Source: a phage. From it: a stretch of DNA of 42,358 nt. The stretch is from sequence record PV357170.1; one strand, given 5' to 3'. The position numbers and the translations under genes are program-made. The notes beneath the pieces are model-generated. The model did no database searches, was not told the origin of the DNA, and saw only the letters and a program-made list of their open reading frames with translations. Below, one piece after another: positions 26,587-29,485 of the stretch (position 1 is the stretch's first letter; the number at the start of each line of letters is the position of its first letter).

Positions 26587-28242
26587 TTATACAAGCCTTG
26601 TGACACTATAAGCGAATGCACTCGCTATGCCAGCGCCGCTGACAGTGTTCCTCAATGTAACCCTGAATCGGGTTGTGCTGAAATATTCAACATCACAAGC
26701 CACGGAGTCACCCGCCGATATTGGCGTTATCTGTACCACATACCCATCAAGATATGTAGATAATTCATGAGAAAAAACTACATCATATACCCCCGTAGCT
26801 ACTACGTTTACTGATGAAACACCAGGCGCAATTCCTATGCCACCCGCGGCACTAATCCTTCCAGAACGAGGAATACTTCCAGCAGAGACAGAAGTATTCT
26901 TGCTGGTTTGCTCCGTGAATGTGCAGCCAATGTCGATTACTTCACAATTAGCGCCAGTAACCCAGAACGGTCGCGTGCTGCTTGGGGCATAAGAACCCGC
27001 GCTCTGGAATGTCGTACCATTGAGAATTACGGTTACTTTACCCCCGCCAGAACTTGTAATATTTAAGTTGTTTATGGTGTAAGCCGTATTACTAACACGA
27101 TGGAAGCCGCCGCCGTTAATAATTACGGTTACTGGGCGCGTTCCCGTGTTATCAATGGCAAGGTCAGAACCACCGGCATTACCCTCGAAATATGGGTTGT
27201 TAAGCACCAAAGCACATGATCCATTAAGACCGTTCACGGCAATCTGCATACCGCCAGTTCCAGCATTACCTTGCGTGCCGTTACCCTCACAGGTAAGGCT
27301 GTTGATGGTAGTCCCTGCACCCCATCTGTCGCCAAGAATACCCCATTGTGTATTCTGGCTTGCCGTTAATCTGTTGACCGTAATTGCATTAAGTTCTGAC
27401 ACATCATCATAATTAACCGCTCGCCACCCAATACGATTCGCCTGCAGGTACACATTATCCAGTTCCGACGTTAAAACGCCATCTGTTCGTAAACCTTCCC
27501 CGTTGGTATGTCCGTAAGATACTATGTTCTCTAACTTAGTATATGCTTTACTGGATACAACAAGACCATAAGACGATCCCGAACCTTTAAGCGTAATGTT
27601 CCCCAGATAATCATATGCGTGTACACGTTGTGTCGCCCCAACGGTATCTCCTAGCATCTTCAAGTTAAAATCAGCAACCTGACAATTAAAGATGGTTTCT
27701 GCCATGTTCTCGCCTTCGTAATGAGCGCGAACACCAGGAGAGCCTATAAACGAAGCATCATAATTGCCATAATCGAGGGTAAGTGCTGAGGATACATCAT
27801 ACACTCCCTGCTTTATTTTTAGCGTACCACCAAGATGCCATTTGGTAAGAGGGTCCTGGTATATTGAGTTATTAATATCATCCAAAGCCTCTTGCACATT
27901 ACTACCGTCAGTTGTCCCAATTAAAGAGGCACCTCTGCCGACGTCTGTGCTTGAGAGGTCCGATCTCAAACTTGCATCGCCAACACTCACCCATGCGCCT
28001 GAACCAACACCGCCAGAAGTTTCTGGGGTTGAGGCAGCAGGAACGGTTTTAGGGAATGTGGCATCCCACGTATAACACTGACCACCGGCAATATGCCAAA
28101 CAGCATCAGTTTTACTGTTTGCAGTAGCACCCTCTTCAAAGCTACCATCAACAAGTGTTAACCCTGCCTCTACAAGACTACGACGCCACTGTTCACGGTC
28201 ATTATTCTTGCTCGCATTGTAAATTAAATTTGTAAGTGCCAT
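26587..28242 (-). CDS. tailspike with right-handed beta-helix (pectate-lyase-like) fold, probable polysaccharide depolymerase
   Basis: 551 aa, Gly/Asn/Thr/Ser-rich with repetitive beta-strand-like segments (…NGTQGNAGTGGMQIAVNGLNGS…ITSSGGGKVTVILNGTTF…); no T7 gp17-like N-terminal adaptor domain; encoded after the lysis genes. Confidence 0.7.
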   Translation of the reverse strand: MALTNLIYNASKNNDREQWRRSLVEAGLTLVDGSFEEGATANSKTDAVWHIAGGQCYTWDATFPKTVPAASTPETSGGVGSGAWVSVGDASLRSDLSSTDVGRGASLIGTTDGSNVQEALDDINNSIYQDPLTKWHLGGTLKIKQGVYDVSSALTLDYGNYDASFIGSPGVRAHYEGENMAETIFNCQVADFNLKMLGDTVGATQRVHAYDYLGNITLKGSGSSYGLVVSSKAYTKLENIVSYGHTNGEGLRTDGVLTSELDNVYLQANRIGWRAVNYDDVSELNAITVNRLTASQNTQWGILGDRWGAGTTINSLTCEGNGTQGNAGTGGMQIAVNGLNGSCALVLNNPYFEGNAGGSDLAIDNTGTRPVTVIINGGGFHRVSNTAYTINNLNITSSGGGKVTVILNGTTFQSAGSYAPSSTRPFWVTGANCEVIDIGCTFTEQTSKNTSVSAGSIPRSGRISAAGGIGIAPGVSSVNVVATGVYDVVFSHELSTYLDGYVVQITPISAGDSVACDVEYFSTTRFRVTLRNTVSGAGIASAFAYSVTRLV

Positions 28243-28853
28243 TATATCCCCTGTCCTTTCATGAGTGCATTAACAGCAGACTCCAATGAGTCATACCGAT
28301 TACCAATAGCCTTTGCTTGCCACTGCCTACGTTCCCATAGGCCCCAGCATACCTTATTGCGCTGCCCGTTAATATACTGGGAGCAGTCGAAAATCCAGCG
28401 GTTGCTACCCTTATAAACCCAACCAGTTCCTGGGGACTTCTGCTGGTACTTACTAATGTAACGCCAGTCCAGCACAGCCTTTCCAGCCGCTGCATAATCA
28501 AGGTTTTTGAGATGCCGTTTCACGGCGCTGCCATTGAAGCTAGCTACGCCTACGTTATAAATGAAGTCTATGGACCCAACTAAGGCTACGTCAGAGAGCT
28601 GCATAGGAAGCCCGTCAAGAGCCTTTGCATGCTCCCCTGCTGATTCTATCAGTTGCTTCTGACAATCGCTCAGTGTGGCTCTCTGGCCCATTTTGACGCC
28701 CTTTGTCTCCCCGTAGCAGATTGTAGGGATGCCTGCACTGTCTTTGTATGCTGTAAGGCTCAAGCCCTCGTTGTGTTGGACTACCTCAGTAATAGCTCCG
28801 CCGAGCATGGTCGCCCCGGCGAGTGCTGCTATAACCCTAGTCCTTAAACTCAT
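28242..28853 (-). CDS. endolysin: GH24 (T4-type) lysozyme with N-terminal signal-arrest-release domain
   Basis: Catalytic E-x8-D-x5-T arrangement in NEGLSLTAYKDSAGIPT; N-terminal weakly hydrophobic Gly/Ala-rich segment RVIAALAGATMLGGAI typical of SAR domains. Confidence 0.8.
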   Translation of the reverse strand: MSLRTRVIAALAGATMLGGAITEVVQHNEGLSLTAYKDSAGIPTICYGETKGVKMGQRATLSDCQKQLIESAGEHAKALDGLPMQLSDVALVGSIDFIYNVGVASFNGSAVKRHLKNLDYAAAGKAVLDWRYISKYQQKSPGTGWVYKGSNRWIFDCSQYINGQRNKVCWGLWERRQWQAKAIGNRYDSLESAVNALMKGQGI

Positions 28854-29088
28854 ATTTAATCGCCCCCTTACGTGCGTGCTCTTCTAGGAGCTTGTATGTG
28901 CGTCGTTTATAGTACGCATTCCACGCCAGGGTTAGCACTGCACATACCGTCGCAGTAATGAAGCTGATCACACTCCAGTTCCAACTCATTAACTCCGCCA
29001 ACCAGCCTCCTGAGACTGTAGCACCAGTAACAGCTGCCCCTGCCCGGGTAGCGAGGTCTGCCCCAACTACATCCCCTACTTTAATCAT
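28837..29088 (-). CDS. holin, probably pinholin-type
   Basis: 83 aa with two hydrophobic segments (Gly/Ala-rich TMD1, then WSVISFITATVCAVLTLAW) and a charged C-terminus; adjacent to a SAR endolysin. Confidence 0.6.
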   Translation of the reverse strand: MIKVGDVVGADLATRAGAAVTGATVSGGWLAELMSWNWSVISFITATVCAVLTLAWNAYYKRRTYKLLEEHARKGAIKYEFKD

Positions 29089-29485
29089 CCTGCTGACCCT
29101 TCTTCCTGAACAGCTTACGAATCACCAGAATGGTTACTAGGAAGACCAAAGGAATGCTGGCCCCTGCTAATCCGGCGAGGATAAGGCTGTAACTATCATT
29201 GTTAACTACCTGTAGGCGCTCTGCCTGGATTGTGCCAGTACTAATAGTCTGCACTTGCTTCTTGCTAGAAGTATCCAGTGTACCTACGTTAGAATCCTGT
29301 ACATCAGTTTTGTTGGTGGTGCTGGAGTCCACCTTATTATTCAGCCCGAGTACCTGCTTAGTATTCTCAGCACCAACCTGTGCAGATACTTCCGGCTTAG
29401 AGCCAACTAAGCCGGTTAGTGCAGAGGTCGCTGAGCAACCAGTCAGAGTAACCGCGAGCAGTAACCCAGCGACCAGTTTATACAT
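29081..29485 (-). CDS. candidate unimolecular spanin (OM lipoprotein with C-terminal TM anchor)
   Basis: N-terminal lipoprotein signal with lipobox LTGC (MYKLVAGLLLAVTLTGCSA), C-terminal TM helix LILAGLAGASIPLVFLVTILVI followed by RKLFRKK; no Rz/Rz1 pair seen. Confidence 0.6.
   Translation of the reverse strand: MYKLVAGLLLAVTLTGCSATSALTGLVGSKPEVSAQVGAENTKQVLGLNNKVDSSTTNKTDVQDSNVGTLDTSSKKQVQTISTGTIQAERLQVVNNDSYSLILAGLAGASIPLVFLVTILVIRKLFRKKGQQDD

Follow-up and report, generated by a model that had tools for sequence, protein, structure and literature searches.

A probable pinholin, SAR endolysin and unimolecular spanin lysis cassette in a KP34-like podophage

Three overlapping genes on the minus strand of PV357170.1 very likely make up a late-expressed module for host lysis in a KP34-like podophage (Drulisvirus), acting by a pinholin, signal-arrest-release (SAR) endolysin and unimolecular spanin (u-spanin) route. 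The window, that is the whole 42,358-nucleotide stretch of DNA analysed, is a near-complete Drulisvirus genome, with Shigella phage SFN6B as its closest relative (98.8% nucleotide identity). The open reading frames, sequence signals, homologies and predicted fold presented below, and the absence of an Rz/Rz1 gene pair, were observed directly.

Layout of the cassette

Checking of the ORFs on the minus strand gave a u-spanin gene of the T1 gp11 family as the first gene of the cassette (134 aa, 29081..29485), a holin gene for a probable pinholin (83 aa, 28837..29088; PF04971, phrog_20) and a SAR endolysin gene for a GH24 lysozyme (203 aa, 28242..28853; PF00959). Coordinates, lengths and the spanin-holin-endolysin order all match those of an earlier, sequence-only reading of this DNA. 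The three genes are tightly coupled. The spanin stop and the holin start share 8 nt, ATGATTAA, and the spanin is translationally coupled to the holin. The 3′ end of the holin gene and the start of its downstream neighbour, the SAR-type GH24 lysozyme gene, have 17 nt in common, and the endolysin gene overlaps the start of the tailspike gene by 1 nt. TAATG is present at each outer junction of the cassette, and ribosome-binding sites of the AAGGG type lie upstream of the holin and the endolysin. The same cassette is kept in >250 phage genomes, and the spanin protein alone matched 1141 phage records; thus, the cassette is not a chance arrangement.

All ORFs of at least 25 aa, with any start codon, were scanned over the whole window for a two-component spanin. 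On the coding strand, a lipoprotein signal was found in the 134-aa ORF only, and no ORF elsewhere resembled an i-spanin (an N-terminal transmembrane domain (TMD) plus a periplasmic domain). The spanin gene was also checked for an embedded Rz1-like frame, and no same-strand ORF of at least 30 aa was found inside it. The earlier statement that no Rz/Rz1 pair is visible is therefore upheld for the window.

The spanin and the endolysin

The 134-aa protein had been described from the letters as T1 gp11-like, with an LTGC lipobox and a C-terminal transmembrane helix, and both features were seen. In a direct BLASTP comparison it was 40% identical to T1 gp11 over 125 aa (E 2e-25), rising to 46% in a MAFFT alignment, and it matched the spanin family phrog_1804 over its full length (4.3e-50). 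The Escherichia phage Minorna equivalent is labelled ‘unimolecular spanin’ in the annotation of the Center for Phage Technology (CPT). Two other family models scored below their cut-offs, Pfam LPAM_1 weakly at 14.8 bits (cut-off 20) and NCBIfam spanin2_3 at 19 bits (cut-off 80). Kongari et al. 2018 (PMC6139136) place a protein in a u-spanin family when it is 40% or more identical to a member over 40% or more of its length; here, the 40% identity to T1 gp11 extends over 125 of the 134 aa, and identity to KP34 gp54, a listed member, is 96%. The assignment to the T1 gp11 family, which includes the KP34 spanin, is already in this spanin database paper (PMC6139136).

The lipoprotein signal peptide, MYKLVAGLLLAVTLTGC (29435..29485, minus strand; sequence inspection and lipobox alignment), has K3 in its n-region, an uncharged hydrophobic core and the lipobox LTGC (29435-29446, minus strand), with the predicted acylated Cys at residue 17. 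It agrees with the PROSITE-type lipoprotein rule, which places the Cys at 15-35 and a K or R within the first 7 residues and has the 6 residues before the box uncharged. The lipobox is invariant among KP34, Minorna and T1 as L-[ST]-G-C (alignment A5), with LSGC in T1 gp11. Residues +2 and +3 after Cys17 are Ser18 and Ala19. Under the Lol-avoidance rule, a lipoprotein with Asp in the +2 position is not sorted to the outer membrane; with Ser rather than Asp at this position, sorting of the spanin to the outer membrane is therefore predicted.

Near the lipidated end lies P-x-V-x-AQVGAENTKQ (29354..29395, minus strand), the periplasmic motif best conserved across the T1 gp11 family, in which P31, V33 and A35-Q44 are invariant columns of alignment A5, T1 gp11 included. 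The predicted C-terminal transmembrane anchor spans residues ∼100-122 (29120..29188, minus strand; KD19 up to 2.40, KD17 up to 2.60) and is followed by a basic tail, RKLFRKKGQQDD, predicted to be cytoplasmic. Cys17 is the sole cysteine, leaving none in the periplasmic part, and all 58 surveyed u-spanins likewise lack a periplasmic cysteine (PMC6139136).

The proposal of a 203-aa GH24 lysozyme with a SAR N-terminus and an E-x8-D-x5-T triad is supported. The protein matches PF00959 (9e-21), is 89% identical to KP34 gp56 and has the SAR endolysins R21 (3hde) and DLP12 RrrD (4zpu) as its best sequence relatives of solved structure. The AF2 model is a lysozyme fold with a pLDDT of 95.3, its N-terminal helices packed on the body, and the best Foldseek matches of the model were 7m5i, 4zpu and 3hde. 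It aligned with full-length R21 (3hde) over 187 columns (TMt 0.70) and with the truncated form (3hdf) over 117 columns (TMt 0.63). The catalytic triad segment, E29-x8-D38-x5-T44 (28722..28769, minus strand), fits the GH24 pattern E-x8-D/C-x5-T, and its residues align with E35, D44 and T50 in the R lysozyme of the P21 type; E29 and T44 do not vary among the 85 sequences of alignment A4, and D38 hardly does (at least 90%).

The SAR segment comprises residues 1-26, MSLRTRVIAALAGATMLGGAITEVVQ (28776..28853, minus strand; R21 alignment). R4 and R6 are followed by the Gly/Ala-rich, weakly hydrophobic stretch VIAALAGATMLGGAIT, with a KD17 of 1.51. The first 30 residues are 43% G, A, S or T and contain no Cys, the cysteines of the protein being at 46, 64, 157 and 169, and a hydrophobic N-terminus is kept in 84 of the 85 diverse relatives. 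SAR endolysins with a Cys-free SAR domain are activated by R21-type refolding, and those of the P1 Lyz type by disulfide isomerisation. Since this SAR segment offers no Cys for a disulfide switch of the P1 Lyz type, activation of the R21 type is indicated.

One claim about the endolysin has to be replaced. What was taken for a C-terminal extension of ∼50 aa is, according to the alignment and the AF2 model, an internal insertion ahead of the conserved GLWERR helix, plus a short helix at the very end. The insertion, in the C-terminal lobe at residues ∼140-169 (28347..28436, minus strand), is absent from R21-type, T1 and LUZ19 lysozymes (alignment A1). It consists of a beta-hairpin (140-154), with strands at 145-149 and 152-156 modelled at pLDDT >95, and a loop bounded by the invariant Cys157 and Cys169. 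Among non-redundant relatives the hairpin was occupied in 13 of 85 and the Cys-bounded loop in all 85. The GLWERR (GLxxRR) helix (170-183), the usual end of GH24 phage lysozymes, and the extra terminal helix (190-200) together occupy 28245..28346 (minus strand). G171, R175 and R176 are invariant in the comparison with R21-type, T1 and LUZ19 lysozymes, and the terminal segment of ∼18 aa carries its extra helix in 85 of 85 clade members. That hairpin, Cys-bounded loop and terminal helix form a functional subdomain rather than neutral decoration is a conjecture to which we give little credence. As one example of a role, the module could be an element specific to the periplasm and stabilised by a disulfide, with peptidoglycan binding or a redox checkpoint in SAR-endolysin activation as its function. 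The searched literature held no mention of it.

The holin and alternative readings

The 83-aa protein is 94% identical to KP34 gp55 and matches phrog_20 (holin) at 8e-17. Against PF04971 (Phage_holin_2_1, P21 holin S), it scored 27.6 bits over residues 27-67 (E 2.8e-6), a marginal pass of the gathering score of 26. Its main transmembrane helix (residues 37-58; 28915..28980, minus strand) has a KD17 of 2.13, lies in the region covered by the Pfam P21 holin model and is followed by a highly basic C-terminus, predicted to be cytoplasmic. A putative, weakly hydrophobic first TMD, residues 16-34, AGAAVTGATVSGGWLAELM (28987..29043, minus strand; KD17 ∼1.0), was aligned with TMD1 of S21 (alignment A2) and may be analogous to that releasable domain; the experimentally established TMD1 of a P21-type S protein has a KD17 that is lower still. 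A two-TMD topology is thus plausible. Of the two TMDs in the sequence-only reading, TMD2 is unambiguous, whereas the first is marginal.

Two features of S21 were looked for in the holin. A glycine-zipper-like face of small residues is important in TMD2 of S21. At the aligned positions, where S21 has G, G, S and G, the holin has S, T, A and A, small residues with no glycine among them. The dual-start motif is absent: the gene opens with one ATG, its reading frame reaches the next Met at residue 34, and neither GTG nor TTG is found in frame close to the start.

These observations bear on whether the 83-aa protein is instead a single-TMD (class III-like) large-hole holin, a reading that we regard as unlikely but deserving of serious consideration. 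Just one helix, residues 37-58, is strongly hydrophobic, and the absence of a dual start and of glycine at the S21 glycine positions would fit such a protein, as would the single TMD attributed to KP34 gp55, both in its GenBank record (‘one transmembrane domain shown using PHOBIUS and TMHMM’) and in the literature (PMC4411677). Yet the gathering score of the Pfam P21 pinholin family was passed, the stretch 16-31 is uncharged, rich in Gly, Ala and Thr, and above the releasable TMD1 of P21-type S on the Kyte-Doolittle scale, and small residues fill all of the aligned glycine/serine positions. Moreover, a SAR endolysin partner needs depolarisation only. Because the first TMD is marginal, the KP34 predictions are of one TMD, and the glycines and dual start are missing, it is mainly from this partner that the pinholin nature is drawn. 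Were the protein a single-TMD holin, lysis would still be triggered, by non-specific permeabilisation of the membrane.

The partner could itself be read differently, with its N-terminus as a conventional cleavable signal peptide and the enzyme secreted and soluble. By inspection, the basic residues, the hydrophobic core and the small residues GGA at 18-20 offer a possible signal peptidase I site, but residues 2-28 align with the SAR domain of R21, the match beginning at residue 2, within the SAR segment, and between residues 11 and 27 many positions do not vary among the relatives. In addition, the AF2 model folds residues 3-29 into two helices (3-12 and 16-29; pLDDT ∼95), as in full-length R21, and an active lysozyme secreted constitutively would lyse the cell prematurely. 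Cleavage is therefore very unlikely, and a SAR endolysin is the preferred reading. Still less credible, to the point of being hardly worth entertaining, is that the 134-aa protein is a Cor-like surface lipoprotein, for superinfection exclusion or another role, with the outer membrane breached in another way. A weak match to phrog_1119 (Cor superinfection exclusion; E 0.0057) does exist, over residues 1-48, essentially the signal peptide, but the spanin PHROG is matched far more strongly, at 4e-50 and over the full length. The protein also has a C-terminal TMD, which Cor proteins are not known to have, and its gene belongs to the lysis cassette, with translational coupling to the holin. Finally, complementation of a lambda Rz/Rz1 lysis defect has been reported for its homologue T1 gp11 (PMC6139136).

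Lysis route, related cassettes and annotation

The timing, topology changes and membrane fusion of the proposed route are modelled on characterised homologues. The lysozyme would be exported via Sec and accumulate with its weakly hydrophobic SAR helix as a tether to the inner membrane, enzymatically restrained, while the holin would build up in the same membrane and trigger at a set time, its small holes collapsing the proton-motive force. On depolarisation, the SAR helix would exit the bilayer and, as in R21, refold against the catalytic body, and this refolding would activate the E29/D38/T44 site, so that the murein is degraded. The spanin, if it behaves as T1 gp11 does, would be anchored in the outer membrane by its lipidated Cys17 and in the inner membrane by its C-terminal TMD, and would therefore cross the periplasm as a single chain. 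With the peptidoglycan mesh gone, it would join the two membranes, disrupting the outer one and releasing the progeny. The searched literature contained no experimental work on any Drulisvirus lysis protein.

The cassette in spanin-first order is not new here; it has been published as a trait that defines the KP34-like phages. In KP34, gp54-gp55-gp56 (u-spanin, holin, SAR endolysin) have the identical gene order and the same location, with the terminase large subunit and two small ORFs ahead of them and the tailspike/depolymerase behind, and the roles of u-spanin, pinholin and SAR endolysin, with their order, have been described as a genus hallmark (PMC4411677, PMC6115819). The KP34 endolysin has the same insertion and terminal helix. 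The differences are point substitutions only, such as Tyr2 for Arg2 in the signal peptide of the spanin; unlike the Klebsiella phage KP34, the nearest genome, SFN6B, infects Shigella/E. coli. Drulisvirus was formerly named ‘Kp34likevirus’.

More distant cassettes share parts of this arrangement. T1, a siphophage rather than a podophage, has the prototype u-spanin, homologous to that of the window and equal in length, with the L-[ST]-G-C lipobox, the AQVGAENTKQ motif and a C-terminal TMD in common. The GH24 triad and an N-terminus of SAR type recur in its endolysin; however, at 162 aa this enzyme lacks the terminal helix and most of the insertion (hairpin and Cys-bounded loop), the holins are barely similar, and the T1 order is holin-endolysin-spanin (gp13-gp12-gp11). 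Phage 21 supplies a holin of the same Pfam family, PF04971, and, in R21 (3hde), the closest match by sequence to have a solved structure, with the SAR segment included; the SAR domain is Cys-free in both endolysins, implying refolding activation of the R21 type. In contrast to the window, phage 21 relies on Rz/Rz1 as a two-component spanin, its S21 has the dual start and TMD2 glycines, and R21 (165 aa) is without the beta insertion and terminal helix. In phiKMV/LUZ19, members of the same family (Autographiviridae), the cassette gp44-gp45-gp46-gp46.1 occupies the same site downstream of the terminase and combines a small holin with a SAR GH24 endolysin that aligns with the present one up to residue 184. 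That endolysin lacks the insertion, and the phiKMV-like phages differ further in their overlapping Rz/Rz1 genes and their holin-endolysin-spanins order.

The spanin gene is labelled ‘hypothetical protein’, or given the misleading PHROG-derived name ‘Rz-like spanin’, in many related records. In the RefSeq record of SFN6B, the spanin ORF is unannotated. The practical value of the present analysis is thus one of annotation, in that it supplies a spanin gene omitted from the nearest reference genome. The corrected description of the endolysin, with its internal beta insertion, conserved Cys pair and terminal helix, adds a small new structural note, which could help groups engineering the endolysins of Klebsiella and E. 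coli phages.

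Cassette organization and genomic setting

An ORF scan placed three minus-strand genes in the cassette, with coordinates exactly as in an earlier, sequence-only reading: a 134-aa spanin (29081-29485), an 83-aa holin (28837-29088) and a 203-aa signal-arrest-release (SAR) endolysin (28242-28853). The spanin stop overlaps the holin start as ATGATTAA, the holin and endolysin genes overlap by 17 nt, and TAATG overlaps are present at both outer junctions of the cassette. AAGGG-type ribosome-binding sites lie 5' of the holin and endolysin starts. Upstream, with two small ORFs between, is the terminase large subunit gene (30058-31914), and downstream is the gene for a 551-aa tailspike (26587-28242). 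The window is an almost complete KP34-like podophage genome (Autographiviridae, Slopekvirinae, Drulisvirus) in reverse orientation. The 28000-29800 region is 98.8% identical to Shigella phage SFN6B and 80-92% identical to ∼250 Klebsiella, Escherichia and Shigella phages, and the spanin, holin and endolysin are respectively 96%, 94% and 89% identical to gp54, gp55 and gp56 of Klebsiella phage KP34. A scan for sigma-70 promoters and terminators around the cassette found sites no more numerous than in shuffled sequence; no conclusion was drawn from this, because KP34-like phages transcribe with their own RNA polymerase.

Next to the cassette, a mechanically called 93-aa ORF with a GTG start (29485-29766, minus strand) overlaps the upstream 125-aa gene. 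Since its match to phrog_7375 is limited to residues 34-93 and its counterpart in Escherichia phage Minorna is annotated as 60 aa, the true start is probably the ATG at residue 34 (∼29667). The product has no transmembrane domain (TMD), and nothing obvious ties it to lysis.

The tailspike gene is followed immediately by a 156-aa ORF (26066-26536, minus strand); in SFN6B the tailspike is followed by no gene. The first 94 residues resemble the N-terminal anchor module found in many tailspike PHROGs (phrog_7992, 8e-59), whereas for residues 90-156 the sole match is to the very C-terminal end of phrog_28781; the protein looks like a tailspike minus its central enzymatic domain, and could be either a mini receptor-binding protein or a remnant. 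No ORF of at least 90 aa was found in 24600-26066, and both GC skew and AT skew turn positive at 25001-26000. This stretch probably holds the ends of the genome or an early promoter region, which would make the window a circular permutation of the SFN6B and KP34 records. Two small hydrophobic minus-strand ORFs (25393-25539 and 25572-25778) lie within this stretch, neither with a PHROG match. SFN6B carries an HNH endonuclease gene (84-572 of NC_047929) between its internal virion protein and tail fiber genes; because the corresponding minus-strand genes of the window (33220-37482 and 32229-33218) abut directly, this homing-endonuclease insertion appears to be absent.

A predicted unimolecular spanin in place of Rz/Rz1

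The sequence-only reading had proposed that the 134-aa protein is a unimolecular spanin (u-spanin), and both its architecture and its homology bear this out. The N-terminus is a lipoprotein signal, MYKLVAGLLLAVTLTGC, with Lys3, a hydrophobic core free of charge, and the lipobox LTGC, whose Cys17 is the sole cysteine of the protein; the serine at +2 predicts sorting to the outer membrane. A strong TMD at residues ∼100-122 (Kyte-Doolittle score KD19 2.4) is followed by a basic tail. A match to phrog_1804 (4e-50) spans the entire protein, and direct BLASTP against phage T1 gp11, the prototype unimolecular spanin, gave 40% identity over 125 residues (E 2e-25), the aligned proteins sharing an invariant AQVGAENTKQ motif as well as the lipobox. 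By tblastn, relatives were found in 1141 phage records, among them T1-like siphophages with a u-spanin annotation, and the Minorna orthologue is named ‘unimolecular spanin’ by the Center for Phage Technology (CPT). Two other matches were set aside: a Cor-like PHROG match confined essentially to the signal peptide, and a match to NCBIfam spanin2_3 whose 19 bits fall well short of the family cut-off (80).

Database records do not treat this gene uniformly. Many other Drulisvirus records name it ‘hypothetical protein’ or ‘Rz-like spanin’, the latter being a mere PHROG family name and not evidence of Rz homology. In both the RefSeq and GenBank records of SFN6B the ORF is unannotated, so that gp46 and the holin are separated by 396 bp without a gene; the equivalent of window 29081-29485 lies at 4317-4712 of NC_047929.

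A two-component spanin was sought among all ORFs of at least 25 aa, with any start codon, on both strands of the window. On the coding strand no lipoprotein signal was found in any such ORF besides the 134-aa one, no ORF outside the cassette combined an N-terminal TMD with a periplasmic-sized domain, and no nested same-strand ORF of at least 30 aa was found within the spanin gene. The only other lipoprotein-signal match on either strand, a plus-strand ORF at 37271-37477, is attributed to chance, being antisense inside the gene for the 1420-aa internal virion protein. The window-wide scan gave no candidate, in agreement with the earlier reading, in which no Rz/Rz1 pair was visible. The early/middle region encodes two small predicted membrane proteins on the minus strand, one of 54 aa with one strong TMD (9904-10068) and one of 72 aa with two TMDs (11665-11883); as spanin components these were rejected as too small and in the wrong place.

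The holin and the SAR endolysin

With 27.6 bits against a gathering threshold of 26, the 83-aa holin falls in Pfam family PF04971 (holin S of phage 21), and it matches holin phrog_20 (8e-17). Pinholin assignment is reasonable but draws mainly on this family membership and the SAR-endolysin partner. The two-TMD topology that had been proposed with it is not established: a helix at residues 37-58 is clear-cut (KD17 2.13) and leads into a highly basic C-terminus, but the N-terminal stretch 16-34 (AGAAVTGATVSGGWLAELM) is marginal, with a KD17 of just ∼1.0. TMD1 of the P21-type S protein, which is releasable and experimentally established, scores lower still on the same scale. At the positions aligned with the TMD2 glycines and serine of P21-type S, the holin carries S, T, A and A, and it lacks a dual-start motif. 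The published prediction for KP34 gp55 has a single TMD (PMC4411677), as does the KP34 GenBank record.

The identification of the endolysin as a GH24 lysozyme with a SAR N-terminus holds (PF00959, 9e-21; triad E29-x8-D38-x5-T44). The N-terminus carries two arginines and then a cysteine-free segment that is rich in Gly/Ala and weakly hydrophobic, and the alignment to the nearest solved sequence relatives of the endolysin, the SAR endolysins R21 of phage 21 (3hde) and RrrD of DLP12 (4zpu), starts within the SAR domain, at residue 2. An AlphaFold model built from 85 diverse relatives, collected by searching for homologues from the Klyazma endolysin as seed, had a mean pLDDT of 95.3; an earlier run on 42 near-identical Drulisvirus sequences was discarded (pLDDT 40). 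Residues 3-29 were modelled as two helices (pLDDT ∼95) and are taken here, from the model, as part of the folded enzyme. By Foldseek, the model aligned over 187 columns with full-length R21, versus just 117 with the SAR-truncated form. A cysteine in the SAR segment separates the disulfide switch of P1 Lyz from R21-type refolding, and because the segment has none, comparison with these enzymes points to R21-type activation. The SLT-type SAR endolysin of KBNP1315, an SP6-like phage, is unrelated and was not a relevant comparison (PMC4640515).

Alignment with the P21-type R, T1 gp12 and LUZ19 gp45 lysozymes placed the G-L-x-x-R-R helix that usually ends these proteins at residues 171-176. The extra residues previously described as a ∼50-aa C-terminal extension instead comprise an insertion at ∼140-169 before this helix and a tail of ∼18 residues after it. 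In the model, insertion strands 145-149 and 152-156 lie beside strand 132-136, and the tail forms a helix (190-200). All 85 relatives, filtered at 88% identity, have the terminal helix and the loop that Cys157 and Cys169 delimit; residues 160-163 are occupied in 36, and the hairpin 140-154 is present in only 13 (Drulisvirus and a few others). Cysteines 46, 64, 157 and 169 are invariant across the set, which naturally suggests two putative periplasmic disulfides. The insertion and tail module is not discussed in the literature searched.

Proposed lysis pathway and related systems

By analogy with characterized homologues, the SAR endolysin would leave the cytoplasm through Sec and stay in the inner membrane in an inactive state. 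Holin triggering would depolarize the membrane, allowing the SAR helix to leave the bilayer and refold onto the enzyme, which would then degrade the murein. Loss of the murein mesh would free the periplasm-spanning u-spanin to draw the inner membrane and the outer membrane together. T1 gp11 is reported to complement lambda defective in Rz/Rz1 (PMC6139136), and u-spanins appear to follow a similar accumulation-and-fusion route, via beta-sheet oligomerization (reviewed in PMC9636201).

The same u-spanin/holin/SAR endolysin arrangement is found in KP34, SU503, SU552A, NTUH-K2044-K1-1 and F19, where it was one argument for creating the genus (PMC4411677), and was noted again for related Pectobacterium phages (PMC6115819); in the spanin database, KP34, F19 and NTUH-K2044-K1-1 are placed in the T1 gp11 family (PMC6139136). 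The order spanin-holin-endolysin differs from the holin-endolysin-spanin order of T1, and phiKMV and LUZ19 have holin-endolysin-Rz/Rz1, with a two-component spanin, whereas here a u-spanin comes first. The cassette is confirmed and its interpretation as a u-spanin, a holin and a SAR endolysin is supported, the feature being already known. What is new is limited to the re-described endolysin insertion and the annotation gap in SFN6B, the nearest reference genome.
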